Virus record (IMG/VR): IMGVR_UViG_3300012931_000017
Location: 33,415 to 97,414 of that record
Reading direction: 5' to 3' (one strand)
Length of the DNA: 64,000 nucleotides
Source of the DNA: a virus
The position numbers and the translations under genes are program-made. Below are positions 6,944 to 50,368 of the stretch, piece by piece. Every line of letters starts with the position of its first letter. Positions within the stretch are counted from its first letter, which is position 1. The notes beneath the pieces were generated by a model. It was given only the letters and a program-made list of their open reading frames with translations. It was not told the DNA's origin and searched no databases.

Positions 6944-7074
6944 TCTTCAACTAATTTAAACCTCTGCAAATCAATGAAACTATCTTAGGCATAGACAAGT
7001 ATACCTTTTCTATTTTTCGCGGATTTGAACTGGTTATTATTAGTTTAAATAGGTTTTAAATATAGATTTGAAAT
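6944..7074. repeat. left arm of a ~130-bp inverted repeat (partner at 8357..8488, about 90% identical)
   Basis: The reverse complement of 6944-7074 aligns base for base to 8357-8488 with a few substitutions. It contains a tRNA T-arm-like 'GGTTCAAATCCGCG' on the complementary strand. Confidence 0.8.
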
Positions 7075-7089
7075 TATATTTGTGGATAA

Positions 7090-7479
7090 TCAAATTGGTG
7101 TCATAGAATCAAGAACTTTTTTAGTATTAAAAACCATAACTATGCCTTTGGAAGATTTCATTGAAATTCTATCACCAGAATCAATAATACCAACTATAGT
7201 CCAGACTTCATTAAATTTTTTGCTTTTAAACTGTTTACCGATAACTATATCAGGATTAGTTTTCGATTTTTTTAAAGTTTGTGCTGGTTCAGCTTGAGGA
7301 GTATCTTCTTTACTTTTCTGGTTTATTGCAGCTAATATCTTTTGTTTTACTTCATCAGTTGGATTATGAGCTTTAAGATAACTTTGTAAATCATCTTTAG
7401 AAGTTTTATTAATCCAAGCATCAGTTGAATCATCTTCGTTTAATTTATAGTTTTGATTATAATCTAAAAAACTTAACAT
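7090..7479 (-). CDS. hypothetical protein (129 aa), in the uvsY.-1 position
   Basis: ORF track; lies immediately downstream of uvsY on the same strand, as uvsY.-1 does in T4. Confidence 0.4.
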   Translation of the reverse strand: MLSFLDYNQNYKLNEDDSTDAWINKTSKDDLQSYLKAHNPTDEVKQKILAAINQKSKEDTPQAEPAQTLKKSKTNPDIVIGKQFKSKKFNEVWTIVGIIDSGDRISMKSSKGIVMVFNTKKVLDSMTPI

Positions 7480-7488
7480 TTGTTTCTC

Positions 7489-7929
7489 CTAAATTCCACC
7501 AATATAAAATTTATCAACCTCTAATTTATTTTTTAAAGACCAATGAAAATCTTTTATATTTATAAGTTGTTGAGCTAAAAACTCAACTTGTCTTCTTTGA
7601 TTCTCTACAACCCTATATTTATTGAGATAATCTTTATTTCCTTCGATATAAGTTGTAATTTCACCTTTAGAATCTAAACTATATTCAAATTCTAAACCAT
7701 CTCCTCTCTTTGGGAATTTATATTTGTGATAAAGTGTTGAGAAAGTTTCTTTTAACATAATTTCAAAATTTATTAGTTTATTCTTTTCAGTATCTAAAAG
7801 ATTTGAGGTTTCTTGTATTAAACCAGGAATCTTATTTAATTTAGTTTGTATATTGAGTTTAGAGGAATCATCTATAACCAATTCCTTCTCGTAATATTCT
7901 TTTAGTTGATCAAAATCTTCATCCTTCAT
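7489..7929 (-). CDS. uvsY: UvsY recombination mediator
   Basis: 'KFPKRGDGLEFEYSLD' matches the T4 UvsY 'YSGRGDGDEFSMD' core. Size 146 aa; adjacent to uvsW as in T4. Confidence 0.7.
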   Translation of the reverse strand: MKDEDFDQLKEYYEKELVIDDSSKLNIQTKLNKIPGLIQETSNLLDTEKNKLINFEIMLKETFSTLYHKYKFPKRGDGLEFEYSLDSKGEITTYIEGNKDYLNKYRVVENQRRQVEFLAQQLINIKDFHWSLKNKLEVDKFYIGGI

Positions 7930-7949
7930 TTATTCACCTTCTTAGAGTT

Positions 7950-7985
7950 TACTTTTAAAATAACATTTTAAAATATAATTGTCAA
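7950..7985 (-). promoter_or_regulatory. copy of the conserved early-promoter element, minus-strand orientation, driving uvsY
   Basis: The reverse complement reads TTGACAATTATATTTTAAAATGTTATTTTAAAAG, about 25 nt upstream of the uvsY start. Confidence 0.6.
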
Positions 7986-8356
7986 ATCATCTTCTAATTT
8001 TTAATCTTCATTGGCACTCTACTATATGTATTCAGATCTTAGATCTTTTCATATAATCCTAAAGGATTATATGTTGCTTAAAGTCTTACACCAAATATTA
8101 GTTAAATTAGTCTTAAAACATCTTATTAGTCTTTATAGTCTTAATAGTTAAATTTATAATCAAAAGACGTAGTCTTTTGTCTTATAGCTTTAGCTATAAG
8201 ATAATTTAATAACCTTTAATTTCTTTATTATAGTATATCATTCAAGAAATCGATAAAAATGCCCGAATTTGGTAAATAATACTTATTCTTTGGGTAATAA
8301 CTAAAATACACTAATTTGGTGATAATTTTATAAGAATATGAGTAGATTTTATTTTA

Positions 8357-8488
8357 CATTTCAAATCTATCTTTAAAACCTATTTAAACTAATAATAACC
8401 AGTTTAAATCAGTGAAAAATAGAAAAGGTATACTCGTCTATGCCTAAAATCGTTTCATTGATTTGTAGAGGTTTAAATTAGTTGAAGA
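8357..8488. repeat. right arm of the ~130-bp inverted repeat
   Basis: See 6944..7074. Confidence 0.8.
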
Positions 8489-8499
8489 TAAAACATCTA

Positions 8500-8604
8500 C
8501 AAATAGGTTTAAATCTTAGGTTCTTGTTCCTAGCGGAACAAGAAGGACTAAAGTCCGCGTTCTAAGGACTAATCTTTGTAGATAATAACTAAATAGTTTT
8601 AAGT
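8500..8604. repeat. repeat unit A1 (57-bp block plus 36-bp block) containing the perfect palindrome TTCTTGTTCC-TAGC-GGAACAAGAA at 8521-8544
   Basis: Near-identical copy at 8919-9022. Confidence 0.85.
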
Positions 8605-8653
8605 TTAATTAGTGGTTTGTGTTTAATTAGTTTATTAGATGAAGATTTTTTAA

Positions 8654-8839
8654 TTTTTACCAAAGAGGATCAAAAATTGAACGGCGCTTTATTTTACGTT
8701 AGTAAAATAAATAATAAGATAATCTTAATACACTTAATAATATTAATAATACTAATAATTATAAGTTTTATTATGAAAAATATCTGCTAAATCTTTTCTA
8801 ATTAATATAATATTTTAAAATATAATTGTCAAGTGGCAT
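8654..8839. repeat. repeat unit B1 (~186 bp) ending in a minus-strand copy of the conserved promoter (TTGACA complement at 8826-8831)
   Basis: About 90% identical copy at 9268-9449. Confidence 0.85.
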
Positions 8840-8918
8840 AATTTACCTTATTTTTATCAAAAATTTGAATCAAATAAGATAACAAAATAGTTCCTAAAAC
8901 CTATCTGGTTATAATATC

Positions 8919-9022
8919 CAAATAGGTTTAAATCTTAGGTTCTTGTTCCTAGCGGAACAAGAAGGACTAAAGTCCAAGCTATATAACTAATCTTTGTAGA
9001 TAATAACCAAATAGTTTTAAGT
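8919..9022. repeat. repeat unit A2 with the same perfect 10-bp-arm palindrome at 8940-8963
   Basis: See 8500..8604. Confidence 0.85.
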
Positions 9023-9267
9023 CCTACCTGATGTAATTAGTTTTATTAACCAAAACTTAGAAAATTTTAAATCCACCATATTATTAGTTTAACTTCAACC
9101 AAAGAAGATTTTACAGGTTCTGGTTCTTAAAGTAACCTTAAGGACTAAAGTCTAATTAAGTTTAGATTTTTGGTTAAATTAATTTTGAATATTTTTGAAG
9201 ATAATAACCAAATAATTTTTTGTTCAGAAAAACGAATTTTTTAATTCTAATTTTTAACGATGTTTTC

Positions 9268-9449
9268 AATTTTTATCAAAAAGGATGGAAATTCAGGATG
9301 GCTCTTTATTTTACGTAGTAAAATAAACAATAAGATAATCTTAATATTACTTTAAAGATTATAATATTATTATTATTTTTTTATGAAAAATACCTTATAA
9401 ATCTTTTCTAATTAATATAATATTTTAAAATATAATTGTCAAGTGGCAT
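9268..9449. repeat. repeat unit B2 ending in a minus-strand promoter copy (TTGACA complement at 9436-9441)
   Basis: See 8654..8839. Confidence 0.85.
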
Positions 9450-9531
9450 TTTATTGAACTAAAAATGCTTAATTTTACTTTACTTTAGGTAATTCGTTTT
9501 GTAAAGTAAACTGATGTTAAAATATGGTGAT

Positions 9532-9566
9532 TTGACAATTATATTTTAAAATGATATCTTATAATA
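9532..9566 (+). promoter_or_regulatory. conserved early-promoter element upstream of gp46
   Basis: TTGACAATTATATTTTAAAATGATATCTTATAAT. It is divergent from the minus-strand copy at 9436-9441. Confidence 0.6.
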
Positions 9567-9592
9567 AACAAGAGAATAATAAAGGAGACCAA

Positions 9593-11353
9593 ATGTTTGT
9601 AGAATTTATAGAACTAAAATATAAGAATTTCATCTCATTTGGAAGTCAATTAACAACTATATCCTTTGAAAAAGGGCTAAATTTAATAACAGGAAAGAAT
9701 GGTGGAGGAAAATCTGGTGGTTTACTTGATCCACTATCATTTTGCTTATTTGGAAAACCATATAGAAACATAAAAATTAGAGATTTGATCAATAGAGTTA
9801 ATAAGAAGAAACTATACACTGAATGTACTTTTAAGGTTAATGAAGATACTTTTACCATAATTAGAACTCAATTACCAGATTCTATTCAAATAATCAAGAA
9901 TGGTAGTGAATATAATTTAGAATCAGCAAAGAAGATAATTCAGGTTGAAATTAATAGAATTTTAGGAATTGACTATAATATGTTTCGCCAGATTATAGCT
10001 TTGGCTATAAACTTTAATAAATCATTTCTTGAGATGGATTCTGGTGAAAAGCGTGAAATAATAGAAAGTATAACCAATGTTAAAGTTTTAGCTGAAATGC
10101 TAAAACTTGTAAAAATAGATGTAAATAGTTTAAAAACTCAAGTTGACATTAACTTTAATACTATCAAAATTCTGGAGGAAAATCTTTTTTCAACTGATAA
10201 ACGAGTTAAAGAATTAACTTATGCCAAAGATAATTTTGAAAAAAATAAAACGGAAGATCTAGAAAAAATAGATTTAAGATTAAAAGACTACTCAAATGAA
10301 AAAAACGTTTATTTAAAACAATTAGCTGAAATTGAATTAAAAAAAGAAGATATTAAGAGTTTAGAAACACAATCTAAAGAAATAAATAAACAACTTGATA
10401 TTTTAACTAAAAAACTAAATGTTGATAAGTATAAGATTGAAGAGTCAGAAAAAAGTATTGAATTTTTAAATAAAAATGATATTTGTCCTATTTGTAATTT
10501 AAATTTAACCAAAGATCATAAATTTGAAGAAAAAAATAAACTTAATACTATTATTAGTTCTTGTAAAGAACATATAAAAAATAATCAGCAGGAATATAAT
10601 GATCTTAAAACCTCTCTAAACTCATTTAAACAGAGAATAATAGCTCAAACGGATATTAATCATAGATTATCATCAATTAATGATAAGATAACTTTTATAA
10701 ACAATGAAATAAAGAATAATGAAGTTAGAAGAATTGAAATTGTCAATAGAATATTTGATTTTGATTTAGAATCATTAAAAAATGAATTTGAACAAAAAAC
10801 TGATAATTATATTGACCTATTTAAGAAAAATGAACAAAATAGTCATGACTTACATAATTTTGAGGTTACTACTTCAATTTTATCAGATAATGGAATTAAA
10901 GCCTATTTCTTTAGAAAAATCATGCCTATTTTAAATAATAAAATAAACGAATACCTTAAAAAATTTGATATGTTGATTAAAATCGAAATTAATGAATTTT
11001 TAGAAGATAAAATATATAGTTTGGATATATCAGGTAATGAAATATCTTATTTTAGTCACTCAGAAGGTGAGAAAAAACGTATTGATATTTCAATTCTATT
11101 AGCTTTTATAGATATAACCAAATTAGTCTGTAATTGGGATTGTTCTCTTCTAATTTTAGATGAAATTCTCGATTCAAAGGTTGATGAGGATGGTTTAGAA
11201 ATAATGATTTCTTCACTGAAGAATTTGATAACTAATAATAAAAGTTTATGTGCTTATATTATATCACACAGACTACATGAATCTGATGCTTTTGATAGAC
11301 AATTTAGAGTATCTAAAGCTAGTGGCTTTTCAAGAATAGAACAATTATACTAA
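9593..11353 (+). CDS. gp46: gp46-like recombination nuclease subunit (Rad50/SbcC family ATPase)
   Basis: 'KYKNFISFGSQ...ITGKNGGGKSG...FCLFGKPYR' matches the T4 gp46 N-terminus, with a long coiled-coil middle. I moved the start to the ATG at 9593 (RBS AAAGGAG), which matches the T4 gp46 start. The track ORF begins 14 codons earlier at 9551. Confidence 0.85.
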   Translation: MFVEFIELKYKNFISFGSQLTTISFEKGLNLITGKNGGGKSGGLLDPLSFCLFGKPYRNIKIRDLINRVNKKKLYTECTFKVNEDTFTIIRTQLPDSIQIIKNGSEYNLESAKKIIQVEINRILGIDYNMFRQIIALAINFNKSFLEMDSGEKREIIESITNVKVLAEMLKLVKIDVNSLKTQVDINFNTIKILEENLFSTDKRVKELTYAKDNFEKNKTEDLEKIDLRLKDYSNEKNVYLKQLAEIELKKEDIKSLETQSKEINKQLDILTKKLNVDKYKIEESEKSIEFLNKNDICPICNLNLTKDHKFEEKNKLNTIISSCKEHIKNNQQEYNDLKTSLNSFKQRIIAQTDINHRLSSINDKITFINNEIKNNEVRRIEIVNRIFDFDLESLKNEFEQKTDNYIDLFKKNEQNSHDLHNFEVTTSILSDNGIKAYFFRKIMPILNNKINEYLKKFDMLIKIEINEFLEDKIYSLDISGNEISYFSHSEGEKKRIDISILLAFIDITKLVCNWDCSLLILDEILDSKVDEDGLEIMISSLKNLITNNKSLCAYIISHRLHESDAFDRQFRVSKASGFSRIEQLY

Positions 11354-29318: not shown

Positions 29319-30503
29319 ATGATTGAGTGTCCATATTGTAAAAACCTTTACTCTAATATAAAAACCCATATATTTTATAAACATGGTAAAAGTTATGAAG
29401 ATTTTAAACGGGAATTTCCTAATTTTGGAAAGACTCAAGAAACTGTTTCTTATTGGGACGGCATTTATTATAAATGTGAATTTTGTAAAAATGTTGGAAA
29501 AACTAAACGCAAATCAATGTTATTAAATCATTATAAAAAATATCATTATAATGAATTAAACGAAAGTCAAAAAATAGAGGTTGATAAATATGTTGAATCT
29601 AAAAACAAATTGGATCTAAATGAATTAATAACCTGTCCAATTTGTGAAAGAAAAGTAAGAATGTTTAAACAACATATTGAGAGAGGTCATTGTTTAAATT
29701 GGAATAAATTTTGTGAAGATTATAATTTTGATAAAAATTTAAAATGTATTATTACTAAAAATCACAAAAATCAATTGTCCATTAATAAGAAACTATTTTA
29801 TCAATCTGAAATTGGATTAGATCAAAGAAAACATTTATCAAAAAAATTTTCAGGAAATGGTAATTTTGCAAAACTAAAATATGTTAGAGAAAAAATTTCA
29901 AAATCAATGTTGAGTAATAATAGAACAAATCAACAATTAGGTAGTTTTGGTTTAATAGTTAATTTCATTTATAATAACCAAGAATATTTTTGTAGAAGTT
30001 TTGTTGAATTTAGAATTTTATTTGCTTTACTTGAAAATAATATTCCGTTTGAATATGAAAAAAATAGATTTTTATATGAATTAGATAGTGGTTTAAAACG
30101 GATTTATATTAGTGATTTGAAAATAAACGACCATATATATGAAATCAAAGCATTTTCTGGAGTTAATATAGAGGAAGGAAAATTTAAGGGTTTTGATGTT
30201 TACAATAAAAATATAAGAATCATTATAGAGAAATCTGGTTTTTCTTTTAAAATAGTAAATTATTCTATGCTTATGGATGAACTAAATTTAGAAAAAAATC
30301 CTGATTTTTATTATGCAAATAAAATAAAAGAAATGTTAGAAAAAAATGAAATTAAAAAATTGCAATTTCTGGTTTTTTCACGAAGTAAATTGAAAAGCAA
30401 TTTTTTTAAAAAATACAACATAGATATAGAAAAATATGCTTGTGTTAATTATAAAGAATTTATAAAAGAAAATGGAGATAAAATAAATGATAACTTGGTG
30501 TGA
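29319..30503 (+). CDS. free-standing homing-endonuclease-like protein: three C2H2-like zinc fingers plus a C-terminal PD-(D/E)xK/Vsr-like nuclease domain
   Basis: 'CPYC...HIFYKH', 'CEFC...HYKKYH', 'CPIC...HIERGHC' fingers; C-terminal 'ISDLKINDHIYEIKAF'. Confidence 0.55.
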   Translation: MIECPYCKNLYSNIKTHIFYKHGKSYEDFKREFPNFGKTQETVSYWDGIYYKCEFCKNVGKTKRKSMLLNHYKKYHYNELNESQKIEVDKYVESKNKLDLNELITCPICERKVRMFKQHIERGHCLNWNKFCEDYNFDKNLKCIITKNHKNQLSINKKLFYQSEIGLDQRKHLSKKFSGNGNFAKLKYVREKISKSMLSNNRTNQQLGSFGLIVNFIYNNQEYFCRSFVEFRILFALLENNIPFEYEKNRFLYELDSGLKRIYISDLKINDHIYEIKAFSGVNIEEGKFKGFDVYNKNIRIIIEKSGFSFKIVNYSMLMDELNLEKNPDFYYANKIKEMLEKNEIKKLQFLVFSRSKLKSNFFKKYNIDIEKYACVNYKEFIKENGDKINDNLV

Positions 30504-31512
30504 AATCGAAAAGGTTGAAGAACTTGAAGATAATAACTATGTCTATGATATAGAACTTGAAAATAATCATTATTTTCCTTCTAATGGAATTGTTAGTCAT
30601 AATTGTAGACTAGTTTCGCAGCCAGAAATGTTAAAATTAGCTTCTCAAGTAAATTCGTTTGGTGGAGGTGGTTCTATTTCTTTAGGTAGTCATAGAGTAT
30701 GTACTATAAATTTTAATAGAATTGCATTAGAATGTAAGGATTATGATGATTATTTTAAAATTTTGGAAAATAGACTAGAAGATTCAACCAAAATTTTAGT
30801 TTCTCATAAAGAGCTTATAAAAAATCTAACTAAACAAGGTTTACAAATGTTTATTTCTAATGGTTGGATAAACATGAACAGAATGTTTTCTACTTTTGGT
30901 TTAATAGGTATTTATGAAGCTTGTCAATATATGAATGAAAAATTCGGTTCTTATGATGATTTAGAAAAAGATATATTAGTTTTTGTTAATAAAAAGGTTG
31001 AAGAATTATCCGTAAAATATAACATTAGTGGAAATATTGAGCAAATTCCTGCTGAAAGTTTTGCTATTAGATTGTGTAATGCTGATAAAATTCTTTTTGG
31101 TGAGGATAAAGTAAATTATAAAATTTATGCAAACCAGTTTATACCACTTTGGAATGACGCTACTATTTGGGAAAAAATGGAAGCCGATGGTAGACTTAAT
31201 AAACTTATTACAGGGGGCTCTCTTGTCCATTGTCAAATTGGAGAACGAGTTACATCAAAACAAGCAGAAAAAATAATTAGATACGCCGTTCAAAGTGGGT
31301 GTGAACATTTTGCTCTTAACTCTGTATGGTCTCAATGTGAGCACAATCACGCTTCTTTTGGGAAAGTACTAATTTGTCCTATATGTGGTGGAAAAATAGT
31401 AGATTATTTAACTAGAGTTGTAGGATTCTTTACTCCAGTTTCTTCTTGGACTAAAATTAGAAGAGAGTGGGAATTTGAAAATAGAAAATTTAATAATTTA
31501 GATCAAATATAA
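30487..31512 (+). CDS. nrdD: Int-C (39 aa) fused to the NrdD C-terminal extein (glycyl-radical domain)
   Basis: Int-C blocks F/G '...NGIVSHN' then 'CRLVSQPEM...'; C-terminal zinc site 'CEHNHASFGKVLICPICGG' and glycyl-radical-like 'TRVVGFFTP'. Confidence 0.8.
   Translation: MITWCEIEKVEELEDNNYVYDIELENNHYFPSNGIVSHNCRLVSQPEMLKLASQVNSFGGGGSISLGSHRVCTINFNRIALECKDYDDYFKILENRLEDSTKILVSHKELIKNLTKQGLQMFISNGWINMNRMFSTFGLIGIYEACQYMNEKFGSYDDLEKDILVFVNKKVEELSVKYNISGNIEQIPAESFAIRLCNADKILFGEDKVNYKIYANQFIPLWNDATIWEKMEADGRLNKLITGGSLVHCQIGERVTSKQAEKIIRYAVQSGCEHFALNSVWSQCEHNHASFGKVLICPICGGKIVDYLTRVVGFFTPVSSWTKIRREWEFENRKFNNLDQI
31399..31492 (+). repeat. 94-bp direct repeat, copy 1 (nrdD 3' end)
   Basis: Identical to 32469-32562. 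Confidence 0.9.
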
Positions 31513-31616: not shown

Positions 31617-32585
31617 ATGTGTATTCCTAATTCAATTTATGTAAGTGTAAAACCCGAAACATTAATTTTAGATCTTAGGATTAAAAGACATAAAGTAAAA
31701 ATGGTTTATTTTATTGTATATAAAACTACTAATTTAATAAATCATAAGATTTATGTTGGAATTCATTTACAATTAAATAATTTAGATTTTGATGGTTATT
31801 TGGGTTCTGGTAAACTTATAAAGCTTTCTATAAAGAAATATGGAAAAGAAAATTTTAAAAGAGAAATTATTGAAGTTTGTAAATCTTGGAATGAACTAGA
31901 AGAAAGAGAAGTTTATTGGATTGAATATTTTCACACTTATATTAAAAAATATCCTAATGACAAAGGGATGAATTGTAGCATTGGAGGTACAAGTGGGTTA
32001 AGTGGATGCAAAAATAAACATTGGAGTAAAGGTAGAACTAAGAATGATTGTGAATCTTTAATGAGAATGGCAGAATCAAGAAAAGGTTTAAATAATCCAG
32101 TACATAAAATACCAAAAGAAAAAATGAAATTAATAAATGAAAAAAGATCAAAAATTATGATTGGGATATTAAAAGGTAGAAAAGTTCCTTGGATTGATAA
32201 ATCTGCTAAAACATTAAAATTACGATACAAAAATGAACCAGAATTAAAAGAATATTGTAAAACTTTTAAATATATTATTAAAATTATATTTAAAAATGAA
32301 TCTAAAGTAGAATATGGTTTCTGTTTAGAAGATATTTCTAAGAAATATAATGTAAGTTTGGGTGCCATTTATTCTATAACCCGTAAAAGAAGAAAAAATA
32401 TTTGGGTTGATGATTTAACCTTTGAAATTATACATACTTTTGTTCCAGTTGTTAAATTAGAAAAAGTTGTAGATTATTTAACTAGAGTTGTAGGATTCTT
32501 TACTCCAGTTTCTTCTTGGACTAAAATTAGAAGAGAGTGGGAATTTGAAAATAGAAAATTTACAAAAATACCTGAAGTTCAATAA
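31617..32585 (+). CDS. GIY-YIG homing endonuclease whose 3' end is a duplicated copy of the nrdD 3' end
   Basis: 'VYFIVYKTTNLINHKIYVGIH...YLGSG' GIY-YIG motif. The last 31 codons '...VDYLTRVVGFFTPVSSWTKIRREWEFENRKF' are identical to the NrdD C-terminus. Confidence 0.8.
   Translation: MCIPNSIYVSVKPETLILDLRIKRHKVKMVYFIVYKTTNLINHKIYVGIHLQLNNLDFDGYLGSGKLIKLSIKKYGKENFKREIIEVCKSWNELEEREVYWIEYFHTYIKKYPNDKGMNCSIGGTSGLSGCKNKHWSKGRTKNDCESLMRMAESRKGLNNPVHKIPKEKMKLINEKRSKIMIGILKGRKVPWIDKSAKTLKLRYKNEPELKEYCKTFKYIIKIIFKNESKVEYGFCLEDISKKYNVSLGAIYSITRKRRKNIWVDDLTFEIIHTFVPVVKLEKVVDYLTRVVGFFTPVSSWTKIRREWEFENRKFTKIPEVQ
32469..32562 (+). repeat. 94-bp direct repeat, copy 2
   Basis: See 31399..31492. Confidence 0.9.
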
Positions 32586-47478: not shown

Positions 47479-48768
47479 ATGAACAATAATCTAAAGAATG
47501 GTTTATTTATGAACAATAATGAAGCATGTGTAGTTACTCTTAAAAATATATCTTCTATTGAAGGTGCTGACAAAATTAAACAAGCTGATGTATATCTTAA
47601 AGATATAAAACTTACTCAGGTTGTTGTTGGTGTAGAAACTAAAGAAGATACTAAAGTAGTTTATTTTGATTCTAATATTTGTATTAATGAATGTTTGACT
47701 CAAGATTTTCCAGATCTTGCAAAATATTTGGGTAAACATAATCGAGTTAAAACTATTAAACTTAAAGGCATTATTTCTAATGGTCTTTGTGTAGATTTAG
47801 ATAAATTTTACAAATACTTTAAAAATGAAAAAGAAGCTAAGTCCACTTTGGTTGAAGGTTATTCTTTCTCAAAAATTAGAGAACAAGATATTTGCAAAAA
47901 ATATATTGTTATGGTTAATGAACCTTCAAAATCTAAAAAGACTAAAGGTAAAGGTAAAATTAGTTCGCGAATGATTCCGGGTATATTTGCCTTTCATTGT
48001 GATACAAATCAGCTTCTTAGAAATATTCATAAGATAAATCCTGATGATATAATCTCAATTTCGGCAAAATTTCATGGCTCCAGCTCGATTGTATCTAATT
48101 GTTTGGTAAAAAAGAAACTTAACTTTAAAGAAAGAATTGCTAAGAAACTTGGAGTTAAAGTAGTTGAAACTGAATATGATTATATTTACGCTTCAAGAAG
48201 AGTTATTAAAAATAAGGAATTCCCAAATTCTAAGTCTTTTTATTCCGAAGATATTTGGGCTAAGTCTGGTAGAGAAAACTTTGAAGGTAAACTTAATAAA
48301 GGTGAAACAGTTTATTATGAAATTGTAGGTTTTCTAGAAAATGGAAAATATATTCAGAAACAATATGATTATGGTTGTACTTCACCAAATTATAAGATTG
48401 TAGTTTATAGAATTACATCAACTAATATTGATGGTGTAGTAACTGAATATAGTTGGTCCTCTATGAAAGAAAGATGTAAAGAACTTAATGTTCCAATGGT
48501 AAAAGAATATTACTACGGGAAAGCTAAAGATCTTTATCCTAATATTTCAATAGAAAATCATTGGCAAATTAATTTTGTTGAACAACTCAAAAAAGATTTT
48601 CTTGAGAAGAAGAGTGCTGATTGTATTAATGACGTTCCTGATGAAGGTATTGTTATTAGAAGAGAGTCTATTTCTATTGATGTTTATAAGTTGAAATCTG
48701 AACTTTTTATTCTAAGAGAATCTAAGTTGAAAGATGATGAAGTTGAAGATATTGAAGATTTGAACTAA
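47479..48768 (+). CDS. RNA ligase (Rnl2-like nucleotidyltransferase)
   Basis: Motif I 'SAKFHGSS' (T4 Rnl2 'KIHGTN'), 'VYYEIVGF', motif IV-like 'EGIVIRRE'. Confidence 0.55.
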   Translation: MNNNLKNGLFMNNNEACVVTLKNISSIEGADKIKQADVYLKDIKLTQVVVGVETKEDTKVVYFDSNICINECLTQDFPDLAKYLGKHNRVKTIKLKGIISNGLCVDLDKFYKYFKNEKEAKSTLVEGYSFSKIREQDICKKYIVMVNEPSKSKKTKGKGKISSRMIPGIFAFHCDTNQLLRNIHKINPDDIISISAKFHGSSSIVSNCLVKKKLNFKERIAKKLGVKVVETEYDYIYASRRVIKNKEFPNSKSFYSEDIWAKSGRENFEGKLNKGETVYYEIVGFLENGKYIQKQYDYGCTSPNYKIVVYRITSTNIDGVVTEYSWSSMKERCKELNVPMVKEYYYGKAKDLYPNISIENHWQINFVEQLKKDFLEKKSADCINDVPDEGIVIRRESISIDVYKLKSELFILRESKLKDDEVEDIEDLN

Positions 48769-48774
48769 TTATAA

Positions 48775-48800
48775 ATAGAATTATAAAATATAATTGTCAA
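48775..48800 (-). promoter_or_regulatory. reverse-oriented copy of the promoter element just downstream of the RNA-ligase stop
   Basis: The reverse complement reads CTTGACAATTATATTTTATAATTC. Confidence 0.35.
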
Positions 48801-49699: not shown

Positions 49700-49734
49700 T
49701 TCCTCTTGACAAACACCTTTCCAACAATTATATT
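49700..49734 (+). repeat. 35-bp direct repeat, copy 1 (TTCCTCTTGACAAACACCTTTCCAACAATTATATT)
   Basis: Identical copy at 50323-50357; flanks the HNH gene. Confidence 0.9.
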
Positions 49735-49771: not shown

Positions 49772-50368
49772 ATGTATCATATTATTTTGAATGAGTCGAG
49801 TCAAGCTTTATCTAATTCTCTTACTTGGGTTGATAGATTATCCGAAGATGTAAAAATCTTTGTTAGAGGTAAAGGACATTCGGCAGAATCTTTCAAAGAT
49901 AAAATTATAAACTGTGGATTCAAAACTAAATTGAAAGTTATAAATGTTCATCCTTATTTTAAAAATAAAAGATTTTCGATTGAAGATTTCGTTTATATTT
50001 TATCCTCAAATGAAGTAATTTACCAATTTGAAAAAAATAACAAAAAATATTCGGTTAATTTAGAATCTGATAGATATAAGAATTTTATGACTAATGGATT
50101 TTCTTGTAAATATTGTGGTTTTCAAGGAACTCATTTTTGGGCAGAATCTAATGTTCTAAATGATAGTAAGCTTCATTTTAATCTTTATGGATTAACAAAA
50201 AATAATAACGAAATGATGTTGACCAAAGATCATATTATTCCTAAATCTGCTGGTGGTTTGGATGTAGTTGAAAATTTTCAAGTTCTTTGTGAACATTGTA
50301 ATAGTAGCAAAGGTTCTATGATTCCTCTTGACAAACACCTTTCCAACAATTATATTAATAATAATTAA
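49772..50368 (+). CDS. HNH homing endonuclease
   Basis: 'CKYCGFQG...HIIPKSAGGLDVVENFQVLCEHCNSSKG' HNH motif. The C-terminal 12 codons read through the second repeat copy. Confidence 0.75.
   Translation: MYHIILNESSQALSNSLTWVDRLSEDVKIFVRGKGHSAESFKDKIINCGFKTKLKVINVHPYFKNKRFSIEDFVYILSSNEVIYQFEKNNKKYSVNLESDRYKNFMTNGFSCKYCGFQGTHFWAESNVLNDSKLHFNLYGLTKNNNEMMLTKDHIIPKSAGGLDVVENFQVLCEHCNSSKGSMIPLDKHLSNNYINNN
50323..50357 (+). repeat. 35-bp direct repeat, copy 2
   Basis: See 49700..49734. Confidence 0.9.

Follow-up and report, generated by a model that had tools for sequence, protein, structure and literature searches.

The uvsY and gp46 genes of the analysed window (64 kb of DNA of a T4-like phage, to which all coordinates refer) are separated by 1.66 kb (7930-9592), which makes this the largest non-coding gap of the window, against a median of 24 bp. 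The spacer has UvsW, UvsY, gp46 and gp55 as neighbours. All genes to its left are leftward and form the block uvsY-orf129-uvsW, and all genes to its right are rightward over 54 kb, in a block that runs from gp46-gp55-gp47 to the DNA polymerase. The start of gp46 was set at 9593, because homologues are 586 aa long and this start is preceded by the Shine-Dalgarno sequence AAAGGAG. As originally predicted, the interval between uvsY and gp46 has no ORF reaching 60 aa; the longest has 57 aa (8617-8790, plus strand). The gap holds four of the 15 early-promoter copies in the window and seven of its 12 perfect hairpins (stem at least 9; binomial p = 6e-9). The features are as follows, with the strand given where a feature has one.

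6944-7074: unit A', a second copy of unit A in inverted orientation, located after the orf129 stop and before the uvsW start
7489-7929, minus: uvsY
7957-7985, minus: early promoter nearest uvsY (promoter scan), TTGACA-17-TATTTT with extended TG, leader of ~20 nt
8050-8073: perfect palindrome CATATAATCC-TAAA-GGATTATATG
8082-8176, plus: cluster of direct (T)AGTCTT repeats (8082, 8108, 8127, 8136, 8170), candidate protein-binding array
8161-8201: abutting double hairpin, CAAAAGAC-GTA-GTCTTTTG followed by TCTTATAGC-TTTA-GCTATAAGA
8358-8488: unit A, 131-nt element predicted to form a long hairpin (inverted repeat and fold)
8495-8604: unit B1, with the abutting double hairpin 8521-8544 and 8545-8556 as its core
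~8640-8839, minus: unit C1, orphan copy of the uvsY promoter-leader, with hairpin 8688-8711, AT-rich DNA 8703-8762 and a start-of-transcript block beginning AGAAAAGATTTA
8804-8832, minus: P8832, promoter of unit C1 (promoter scan)
8914-9022: unit B2, with double hairpin 8940-8963 and 8964-8975
9115-9223: unit B3, decayed third B copy, large stem mostly broken, AAGGACTAAAGTC kept
~9255-9449, minus: unit C2, second orphan promoter-leader cassette, with hairpin 9305-9327 and AT-rich DNA 9324-9383
9414-9442, minus: P9442, promoter of unit C2 (promoter scan)
9532-9560, plus: early promoter directed rightward, serving gp46-gp55-gp47 and genes further on (promoter scan, phage-wide consensus)

These features show that the region is a divergent early-promoter control region between two gene blocks, in which duplications have brought the length to 1.66 kb. 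They involve the uvsY promoter-leader cassette (C1, C2), the double-hairpin unit (B1, B2, B3) and the inverted 131-nt hairpin element (A, A'), and their borders coincide with promoter copies. The repeats and palindromes of the original prediction were all recovered, far above chance, with small corrections of coordinates: its two ~185-bp units, each ending in a leftward promoter, are C1 and C2, and its two ~100-bp units, each with a TAGC palindrome, are B1 and B2, to which B3 is added. A partial echo, AAGGACTAAAGTC, is also present, at 9140-9152 rather than at 9131. The second arm of the inverted repeat, A', falls outside the stretch that the prediction covered.

C1 and C2 are 81% identical overall, with one 74-nt block at 95%, and each terminates in the same leftward promoter, TTGACAATTATATTTTAAAATATTATATT. 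The cassette consists, in this order, of an early promoter, a conserved block spanning the first ~30 nt of the transcript, an extremely AT-rich stretch of ~60 bp and a hairpin. Conservation between the copies is uneven, as the promoter is identical at 29/29 positions and the first transcribed block and the hairpin block at 95-97%, while the sequence between these two blocks has diverged, with indels. Both copies align with the uvsY promoter and 5'UTR of two relatives (L010 and L012), AAAAGATTTA being invariant in all four sequences, and the Shine-Dalgarno/ATG part has decayed in the C units. By this homology, C1 and C2 are identified as duplicates of an ancestral uvsY promoter and its 5' leader.

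The phage-wide early consensus TTGACAATTATAyTTTAAAAT has 15 matches in the window (0.01 expected), and its conserved flanks reach 35-80 nt. P8832 and P9442 are identical and match the sigma-70 consensus, at sequence level, in 11 of 12 positions. Together with the promoter nearest uvsY they form a series of three leftward promoters, spaced 847 and 610 bp apart and pointing at uvsY, and the outermost of them lies 90 bp from the rightward promoter at 9532. All are of the early type (-35 TTGACA, 17-bp spacer) and not MotA-type middle promoters. The original prediction had missed the leftward promoter at 7985 and the rightward one at 9532, as well as several further perfect hairpins and the short TAGTC[TC]T repeats. 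A consensus scan of 7400-10000 gave no terminator-like site on the minus strand, and leftward transcripts should therefore continue into uvsY; intrinsic terminators that would delimit small RNAs are rejected on the same result. The hairpins of the region are also without U-tracts.

B1 and B2 share a 62-nt and a 37-nt block, each 97% identical, and the corresponding blocks of B3 are 78% and 73% identical to the B copies. The palindrome TTCTTGTTCC-TAGC-GGAACAAGAA followed by GGACTAAAGTCC occurs exactly twice (0 expected). Unit A is 94% complementary to A', and the resulting 131-nt inverted repeat brackets uvsY-orf129. The short repeat TAGTC[TC]T has eight copies in the region against 0.6 expected, four of them direct in the 8082-8176 cluster and four within B units. 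The original prediction described the palindromes as iteron-like, which did not hold. Iteron-type origins carry a number of evenly spaced direct repeats, ~17-22 bp each, to which an initiator binds. Here the direct repeat is only the 7-nt TAGTCTT at irregular spacings of 19, 9 and 34 bp, the prominent repeats are long duplications or palindromes, that is, inverted repeats of unrelated sequence, and no adjacent initiator gene for such an origin was identified.

The hairpins sit 86-275 nt downstream of a promoter; those of the C units lie at least 86 nt past the transcription start and the double hairpins of the window at least 240 nt from it. Their loops include C-GTA-G, C-GTTA-G and C-GCTA-G. 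The GN(N)A loop is not always on the same strand: it is on the minus strand for the B-type double hairpins (C-GCTA-G in B1) and on the plus strand for the C-type hairpins (C-GTA-G in C2) and for 8161-8179, the first hairpin of the 8161-8201 pair (C-GTA-G). Across the whole family, C-GN(N)A-G loops close 15 of 45 distinct spacer hairpins and 2 of 280 hairpins outside spacers (Fisher p = 1.5e-12), and the relatives' spacer hairpins include exact GCGAAGC and CCGAAGG. To our knowledge, RNA hairpins have no bias towards C-GNA-G triloops. In DNA, GNA triloops closed by C-G are a hallmark of stable hairpins (PMC13037366). Abutting double hairpins with unrelated stem sequences were found in the uvsY leader of the window and of L003, L005, L013, L002/L007 and L045, and are almost absent outside uvsY leaders. 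Enrichment of perfect hairpins in the spacer was likewise seen in most relatives; long hairpins are few or absent in the spacers of L010, L012 and L015, and L010 and L012 carry a GC hairpin immediately ahead of the Shine-Dalgarno sequence.

The relatives were reached through gp46 (37-64% identity). They have the same gene order and spacers of 0.28-0.93 kb, in every case at least 10 times the median gap, with a single leftward promoter 120-330 nt upstream of uvsY, so that the hairpins belong to the uvsY 5' leader. Independent tandem duplications are present in three of them (L007, 220 bp; L005, 104 bp; L014, 15 nt in four copies), and the relatives have nothing that corresponds in sequence to units A and B. 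The comparison of copy number across related phages that was originally suggested showed that the number of units varies, and extra copies are therefore dispensable. A spacer with structure and a promoter is nonetheless retained by all relatives examined. No match was obtained for the region in 50,697 phage records (blastn), for the exact B-core in IMG/VR, for a degenerate B pattern in JGI metagenome contigs or for gp46 in IMG/VR, and UvsY matched only itself in the protein database.

Several other identities of the region were tried and rejected. Protein coding is contradicted by the lack of ORFs of 60 aa or more, by small ORFs without a plausible Shine-Dalgarno sequence and by a frame-broken ORF fragment shared by C1 and C2; the frame of the 57-aa ORF is not preserved from one C copy to the other, owing to a 1-nt indel in the loop of the hairpin. 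A tblastn search of the region with the ORFs of the relatives' loci, for decayed protein genes, gave only artefacts from spurious promoter-overlapping ORFs. There is no tRNA or tmRNA in the region, the five tRNAs of the window being at 49-63 kb. Relics of IS200/IS605 elements or MITEs would share ends, and no common ends and no TnpB were found (no TnpB/IS605 family match among the ten large window ORFs scanned); the promoter is all that the spacer has in common with the rest of the window, L002 or L007. A CRISPR-repeat mimic or ToxI-like antitoxin repeats do not fit the irregular unit sizes, and Rfam (4227 families) gave no such family.

The original prediction placed the repeats in an AT-rich tract. 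The excess of AT is only modest (22% GC in the region, 26% in the genome); what stands is that the tract contains the two least stable segments of the window. At lengths of 60, 100 and 150 bp, the bodies of C1 and C2 rank as the two segments of lowest stability in the 64 kb (z = 3.0-3.7), 35-100 nt downstream of the inferred transcription starts, with 8703-8762 in C1 as the least stable 60-mer (z = 3.4) and 9324-9383 in C2 as the second (z = 3.1). Other promoters of the window are also among the top 12 ranks of low stability. In five of seven relatives the least stable 60-mer of the locus lies in the uvsY-gp46 spacer, and in the other two the second-ranked one does; three of the five have a mapped leftward promoter (L002, L010, L012), and in each of these the least stable 60-mer is downstream of it. 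On the same measure the known unwinding element of T4 oriF, used as a control, is only in the top 2-4% (z about 1.8-2.0), and therefore low stability fits an origin and is not diagnostic of one. The cumulative GC skew has its minimum at 8400 and the AT skew at 8658, at the single switch of transcription direction in the window, and this skew switch is inseparable from the switch in gene orientation.

We hypothesize, tentatively and with a little less than even confidence, that the region is a transcription-activated replication origin like T4 oriF or the lactococcal c2 ori. Host RNA polymerase would start early at the three co-directional leftward promoters, and transcription would enter easily melted AT-rich DNA, as at T4 oriF and at lactococcal c2-type origins. 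The transcript may remain annealed as an R-loop, and the perfect palindromes on the exposed single strands could then fold into very stable DNA hairpins with GNA/GNNA loops, which would keep the region open and mark a loading site for the primosome. The RNA would prime leftward leading-strand synthesis, and the same leftward transcripts would double as uvsY mRNA. Extra cassette copies would provide additional initiation sites, which are not essential, as relatives have a single copy. The origin suggested in the original prediction is thus consistent with the position at uvsY shared with oriF, the skew minima, the promoters that fire into the least stable DNA and the mini-hairpin loops, and is not proven by them. 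Points counted against it are the confounding of skew with gene orientation, the non-diagnostic stability, the early-type promoters, the mixed strand of the loops, the hairpin-poor spacers of L010, L012 and L015, the lineage-specific A and B units and the decaying B3. A long structured 5' leader could also act at the RNA level alone.

That last point leads to the closest alternative, which we regard as somewhat unlikely, namely that the region controls expression only and has no role in replication. The promoters and the leader would set the level and timing of uvsY-orf129(-uvsW), the hairpins would be attenuators, insulators between promoters or mRNA stabilisers, and the short repeats (TAGTCTT here, CTAGA boxes in relatives) would be operators for a regulator; in effect this is a promoter and stem-loop array of the PeSL type without cargo genes. 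It agrees with the relatives' hairpins being simply part of the uvsY 5' leader and with the C units being copies of the uvsY 5'UTR, and CTAG, nearly absent in the relatives' genomes yet concentrated in the uvsY-gp46 spacer, has an operator-like distribution. The promoter is moreover a cassette repeated genome-wide, like the attenuating PeSLs (PMC2839356). However, the hairpins lack U-tracts, the consensus scan gave no terminator-like site on the minus strand, and the C-G-closed GNA triloops are typical of stable DNA hairpins (PMC13037366). Expression control also leaves unexplained why orphan promoters with a decayed Shine-Dalgarno/ATG are perfectly conserved, and why the least stable DNA follows each of them.

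It is improbable that the region encodes structured RNA acting in cis or trans, either as put-like antitermination double hairpins, as in phage HK022, or as discrete small RNAs from the orphan promoters. A double hairpin after an early promoter recurs across lineages with wholly different stems, as a folded single strand predicts, and HK022 put is a precedent (PMC8632103). Units A and B also fold far better than shuffled sequence (z about -4.6): unit A reaches -29.6 kcal/mol on the plus strand (z = -4.6), B1 has z = -4.6 on both strands, and A' folds on the minus strand into a long imperfect hairpin of -23.3 kcal/mol (z = -2.6). An Rfam search in E-value mode (7400-10000, 4227 families), however, placed no family above chance and returned eukaryotic miRNA and snoRNA models, so that a known RNA family was rejected; the best matches were eukaryotic miRNA models at E = 0.04-0.14, far under gathering scores, and the sole match of unit A was a chance-level miRNA that reflects its hairpin. 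Short, perfectly paired stems also set these hairpins apart from put with its bulges, and the prevalence of triloops favours folding as DNA. B2 has moreover lost the stem that closes B1, and the double hairpins of the window lie far from the transcription start. The small structured RNAs that the original prediction expected from the leftward promoters are disfavoured by the same Rfam result, by the lack of minus-strand terminator-like sites that could define them, by the decay of B3 and by the absence of counterparts of A and B in the relatives.

There is a similarly low probability that the enlarged region arose neutrally, promoter-mediated duplications having gathered at a non-coding spot that tolerates them, with function confined to one uvsY and one gp46 promoter. 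In line with such drift, a spacer of 0.28-0.93 kb with a single leftward promoter suffices in the relatives, A and B are restricted to this lineage, the third B copy is decaying, and the duplication borders match promoter copies. A neutral spot would not be expected to show the uneven conservation of the C duplicates (promoter 29/29, blocks at 95-97%, diverged between), a spacer of at least 10 times the median gap in every relative, or the family-wide loop bias and abutting-pair architecture.

Least probable are two related views centred on recombination. In the first, the region would be a recombination hot spot, where extruded palindromes are cut by SbcCD-like gp46/gp47 or by a junction resolvase and lead to UvsX/UvsY-dependent replication; the same process could drive the local duplications and possibly an inversion of the uvsY segment via the 131-nt inverted repeat. 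The extreme cluster of palindromes, the repeated independent tandem duplications in one spacer, the inverted repeat around uvsY-orf129, the SbcC-like nature of gp46 and the several relatives' contigs that terminate within the spacer fit this view, but gene adjacency is not functional evidence, and in a highly recombinogenic phage any repeats would be expected to give duplications and broken contigs. No sign of an inverted isomer was seen either: the sole extra contig (Logan L001) merely ends inside both A arms, as a de Bruijn graph would produce, and a single arrangement explains it equally, so that inversion between A and A' was rejected. The second view, for which we see only a slim chance, is that the palindrome cluster is a site of programmed breakage, so that a T4-like phage would carry a dedicated 'break-induced origin' encoded in its sequence, where ultra-stable GNA-loop hairpins would form in duplex opened by transcription or a passing fork, be cut by the phage SbcCD-like gp46/gp47, whose gene starts 60 bp away, and pass the break to UvsY/UvsX for recombination-dependent replication; if true, it would also explain the repeated duplications and the 131-nt inverted repeat around uvsY.

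We know of no T4-like phage other than T4 itself in which replication origins are experimentally defined, and since origins are not conserved in sequence they are essentially unmapped in divergent metagenomic T4-like phages. The present clade offers a signature, recognisable from sequence, at the uvsY promoter, in the position of T4 oriF: an early promoter, DNA of minimum stability and abutting hairpins with mini-hairpin loops. If the region is an origin, the link between the uvsY promoter and the origin would be ancient, the role of stable single-strand hairpins in R-loop origins becomes testable, and the signature would be a marker with which to predict origins and interpret coverage peaks in uncultured phages. 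As a leader only, it is still a clear case of promoter-cassette duplication reshaping a core region.

Several known systems share parts of this architecture. HK022 put is a ~65-nt double hairpin that acts in cis downstream of early promoters (PMC8632103), and a double hairpin shortly downstream of early promoters is found here too; put stems, however, are longer with conserved bulges, whereas those of the spacer are perfect and often short with DNA-type triloops, and no downstream terminator-like sites to overcome were identified. GNA/GNNA mini-hairpins occur at the primase site of phage G4 and at plasmid ssiA; such hairpins have exceptional stability in single-stranded DNA, are poorly bound by SSB and serve to mark sites for primase (PMC13037366). 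The G4 complementary-strand origin and the RSF1010-type ssiA resemble the spacers of the window and its relatives in having C-GNA-G or C-GNNA-G loops and hairpins in adjacent pairs or groups. These signals act on DNA that is already single-stranded and are read by specific primases, whereas here transcription or unwinding would first have to open a DNA duplex.

With the PeSLs of T4-type phages the region shares a strong sigma-70-like early promoter that is conserved over tens of bases and repeated genome-wide (15 in the window), stem-loops associated with the promoter, and rearrangement borders at the cassettes, as could result if promoter copies recombine with each other (PMC2839356, PMC4122927). 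PeSL stem-loops attenuate read-through from upstream promoters (PMC2839356) and are typically G/C-tract terminators beside or inside the promoter, whereas the hairpins here are found 86-275 nt downstream. PeSLs flank small cargo ORFs in hyperplastic regions; between the promoter copies here there is no cargo ORF, and the array sits within the conserved replication/recombination core.

[quoted passage not shown] The spacer likewise is a non-coding stretch between divergent gene blocks with co-directional early promoters and no ORF or ribosome-binding site, and in both cases the sequence differs greatly among related phages while the architecture is kept (PMC7150918). The c2 phages are unrelated siphoviruses of Gram-positive hosts without sequence similarity to the window, and their origin supports plasmid replication experimentally.

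[quoted passage not shown] The original prediction had compared the region with oriF and oriG as lying near uvsY; this is right for oriF, which is annotated at the uvsY start in the T4 RefSeq record ('primer RNA is same as transcript for gene uvsY'), and not for oriG, which is ori(34) and not near uvsY (PMC3016281). There is no sequence similarity to either origin, and early sigma-70 promoters (TTGACA -35) take the place of the MotA-dependent middle promoters of T4, with no MotA box at -30. The two orphan cassette copies beside the proximal promoter are a further difference, as are the clusters of perfect hairpins with GNA/GNNA loops and the short direct repeats, which are not among the required parts of oriF listed in the review (PMC3016281). 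The parts that are shared with the oriF/oriG class, as read from the sequence, are a promoter that fires into the element and is predicted to be active by the onset of replication (here of the early type), an easily unwound A+T-rich element of ~100 bp downstream of it, and a site at the switch of transcription direction and compositional skew (PMC3016281). As at oriF, or ori(uvsY), the element is on the 5' side of uvsY, directly upstream of or at the uvsY start, the UvsW helicase gene is near in both phages, and the T4 origin transcript is the uvsY transcript, just as the leftward transcripts here are predicted to run into uvsY.

The phage of the window is T4-like, highly divergent and very AT-rich (26% GC; own contig ENA ERZ27227667 k141_4222033, 97.8 kb), and the best isolate match of its gp46, a group of cyanomyophages, reaches 29% identity only. 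Between uvsY and gp46 lies the largest non-coding gap of the window (1.62-1.66 kb; median intergenic gap 24 bp). All genes to its left, among them orf129 and UvsW, run leftward and all genes to its right, among them gp55, gp47, DNA polymerase, UvsX and gp41, run rightward (54 kb); the cumulative GC-skew and AT-skew have their minima at 8400 and 8658, respectively. A mechanical ORF call starts gp46 at 9551 (600 aa), which would put a promoter -10 element (9555-9560) inside the ORF. We place the real start at 9593, because homologues of 586 aa and a Shine-Dalgarno sequence (AAAGGAG) point there. Every element that the original prediction had listed in the spacer was present, with slightly corrected coordinates, and the features are as follows:

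7489-7929, minus strand: uvsY (PHROG 231)
9593-11353, plus strand: gp46, right-hand border of the spacer
8495-8604 and 8914-9022: double-hairpin units B1 and B2 (97% identical)
9115-9223: B3, a third, decayed copy of unit B
about 8640-8839 and 9255-9449: C1 and C2, promoter-leader cassettes without a gene of their own, each closing with an identical leftward promoter
7985, 8832 and 9442: -35 hexamers of the three leftward early promoters
9532: the one rightward early promoter
8082-8176: five direct (T)AGTCTT motifs, newly added here
8358-8488 and 6944-7074: unit A and its partner A', a 131-nt inverted repeat, 94% complementary
8161-8179/8180-8201, B1 core and B2 core: abutting double hairpins

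The promoter of the C units is the phage-wide early promoter (TTGACAATTATAyTTTAAAAT) and not particular to the spacer. Its consensus occurs 15 times in the window against 0.01 expected; four copies are in the spacer and one directly precedes the tRNA cluster. The sole minus-strand copy outside the spacer (48778-48800) sits between two rightward genes, antisense into an RNA-ligase-like gene (47479-48768). Shortly after the tRNA cluster, an ORF (49772-50368) is flanked by a variant promoter-like motif, TTCCTCTTGACAAACACCTTTCCAACAATTATATT, in two identical copies of 35 nt (49700-49734 and 50322-50356), an arrangement similar to that of PeSLs, the promoter-early stem-loop cassettes of T4-type phages.

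The spacer also holds more than was first described: of the 12 perfect hairpins with a stem of 9 or more in the window, seven were located there (p = 6e-9). The A/A' inverted repeat is the longest repeat of the whole window and was found in no relative. A' is placed downstream of orf129, outside the region originally delimited; between the two arms lie orf129 and uvsY, then the proximal promoter and the segment with the TAGTCTT motifs and hairpins. Pairing of the arms over 131 nt would be possible in RNA started at the distal promoters, as would inversion of the uvsY segment at the DNA level. A separate 101-nt direct repeat (98%; 31392-31492 and 32462-32562) lies near the 3' ends of the adjacent ORFs 30487-31512 and 31617-32585, which suggests that these are paralogues with a recently homogenised C-terminal segment. 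We found no protein-coding sequence, RNA-family match, tRNA, or likeness to a decayed gene or IS end in the spacer.

Only gp46 led to relatives (37-64% identity), whose contigs come from several metagenomes and are denoted L002 to L045 (L001 is the Logan contig of the window phage itself). The gene order UvsW-(orf128)-UvsY followed by divergent gp46-gp55-gp47 was kept in all of them. Where promoters could be mapped, one leftward and one rightward early promoter were present 150-200 bp apart; the leftward one lies 120-330 nt from uvsY, and the spacer is therefore mostly uvsY 5' leader. A four-way alignment with the uvsY promoter and 5'UTR of L010 and L012 shows C1 and C2 to be copies of this region. 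The promoter is conserved and AAAAGATTTA at the transcript start is invariant, followed by an AT-rich stretch and then a hairpin, and in the C units the counterpart of the Shine-Dalgarno sequence and ATG is decayed. The window spacer is thus an expansion, in which the ancestral promoter-leader cassette was duplicated together with unit B, a new promoter copy arose beside uvsY and unit A was copied inverted to the far side of the uvsY-orf129 pair. Promoter copies coincide with the duplication borders, consistent with recombination between copies of a promoter cassette of the kind reported for PeSLs (PMC2839356, PMC4122927).

Leader expansion is a recurring event in the clade. The comparison of units with related phages, suggested by the original prediction, showed spacers of 0.28-0.93 kb with leader duplications in three relatives: in L007, which shares 98% identity with L002 and L008, the hairpin segment is duplicated in tandem (220 bp), L005 has tandem units of 104 bp within which the contig ends, and L014 carries a 15-nt unit, ACTAGATTCTAGAAT, in four tandem copies. 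In L010 an Hsp20 gene is inserted between uvsY and gp46. Contigs of up to 57 kb from three independent relatives end inside the spacer (L005 1-373, L006 1-212, L009 1-330), and the ends of L001 fall within the two arms of the 131-nt inverted repeat; all these ends are probably assembly breaks at repeats, or possibly heterogeneity at the locus. Accessory or mobile insertions in relatives (L002 605-2167 and 14563-15741; L007 9284-9649; L010 11990-13764 and 5372-5800; L004 1380-1931) comprise TnpB/IS605-type genes, a DNA polymerase intein, the Hsp20 gene and a GIY-YIG-like ORF beside uvsW, all absent from the window segment.

Our analysis points tentatively to a transcription-activated replication origin as the best-supported functional reading of the spacer. 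Three co-directional early promoters would transcribe leftward into uvsY across DNA that has no ORF, melts easily and is rich in hairpins. Over the whole 64 kb, duplex stability is lowest in the two C bodies (8703-8762 and 9324-9383; z = 3.0-3.7), at segment lengths of 60, 100 and 150 bp alike; they are located 35-100 nt from the inferred transcription starts. Such a segment of low stability is conserved in the family although the sequences turn over: the spacer holds the locus's least stable 60-mer in five of seven relatives and ranks second in the other two; in L002, L010 and L012, where the promoter was mapped, this 60-mer is downstream of the leftward promoter. Plausibly, stable hairpins would then form on the strands exposed by opening of the duplex, keep the DNA open and mark a primosome loading site.

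Short repeated motifs also recur in the spacers, TAGTCTT in the window and CTAGA/ACTAGAT boxes in relatives. In a set of relatives (L002, L003, L005, L007 and L010) CTAG is almost absent (L002 has 2 sites in 21.8 kb and L010 has none in 13.8 kb), and the few sites are concentrated in the spacer as ACTAGAT/CTAGA boxes and palindromes (L005 17 of 22, L007 4 of 4). CTAG shows no such avoidance in the window phage (89 sites), whose spacer is without these boxes. In several relatives the hairpins are separated from uvsY by a polypurine/polypyrimidine tract of 50-60 nt, which has AAAGAAAAG repeats in its plus strand (L002 9560-9615, L045 4460-4530, L015 about 2790-2850), with no equivalent in the window. 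Possibly, the locus serves expression control only, by means of promoters in tandem, hairpins that attenuate or stabilise transcripts, and operator boxes, in the manner of PeSLs, which we regard as somewhat unlikely.

One or more abutting double hairpins were present in the uvsY leader of L003, L005, L013, L002/L007 and L045, with entirely unrelated stem sequences. In a strict search all four abutting pairs of the window were inside the spacer, and almost none were found elsewhere in the relatives' loci. Such persistence of structure under changing sequence speaks for an element that works as a folded single strand rather than as a site for a sequence-specific duplex-binding protein. A structured RNA, either a double-hairpin antiterminator like put of HK022 (PMC8632103) or the small RNAs proposed originally, which gained no support, is improbable, being weakened by the lack of terminator-like sites, Rfam support and RNA-type loops. 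Among perfect hairpins (stem 6 or more, loop 3-4), a C-GNA-G/C-GNNA-G loop on one strand was carried by 15 of 45 distinct spacer hairpins vs. 2 of 280 outside spacers (Fisher p = 1.5e-12; 1.5e-9 with conservative de-duplication). They include exact GCGAAGC and CCGAAGG; such DNA mini-hairpins are exceptionally stable as single-stranded DNA, bind SSB poorly and are known from ssiA, a plasmid single-strand initiation signal, and from the primase site of phage G4 (PMC13037366). These family-wide biases in structure and loops, and the uneven conservation between duplicates, make a neutral by-product of duplication quite unlikely. A palindrome-driven recombination hot spot, cut by the adjacent SbcCD-like gp46/47, is very unlikely.

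The double hairpins have the GNA loop on the minus strand, the strand carrying the motif being mixed in the window, and the C-type hairpin (C1/C2, L010, L012) has it on the plus strand. The minus strand is non-template for leftward transcription and would be displaced by an R-loop. The original origin proposal is partly supported, through analogy and architecture and not through function. We hold it tentatively because the switch in skew cannot be told apart from that in gene orientation, the unwinding element of T4 oriF, as positive control, ranks only in the top 2-4% for low stability, the promoters are of early and not of MotA type, the loop-motif strand is mixed in the window, hairpins are few in some relatives, and units A and B are lineage-specific with B3 decaying.

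Taken together, these results class the locus as a candidate origin at uvsY of the promoter-plus-unwinding-element type. Its kind is no surprise, but with it the mapping of origins in divergent T4-like phages becomes open to direct test. The candidate is unusual in its duplicated cassettes, its abutting double hairpins and its DNA mini-hairpin loops, and the hairpins and loops return throughout a clade of uncultured T4-like phages. Two systems that have been studied by experiment match the origin reading. T4 oriF is likewise situated at the uvsY start, with the uvsY transcript as primer. It combines a promoter with an A+T-rich unwinding element, where the R-loop forms, and like oriE and oriG it lies where transcription direction and skew switch (PMC3016281). 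The spacer also matches the lactococcal c2-type origins, non-coding stretches with two flanking co-directional early promoters between divergent gene blocks, which differ strongly in sequence from one another and for which a non-coding transcript has been proposed as the mediator (PMC7150918).
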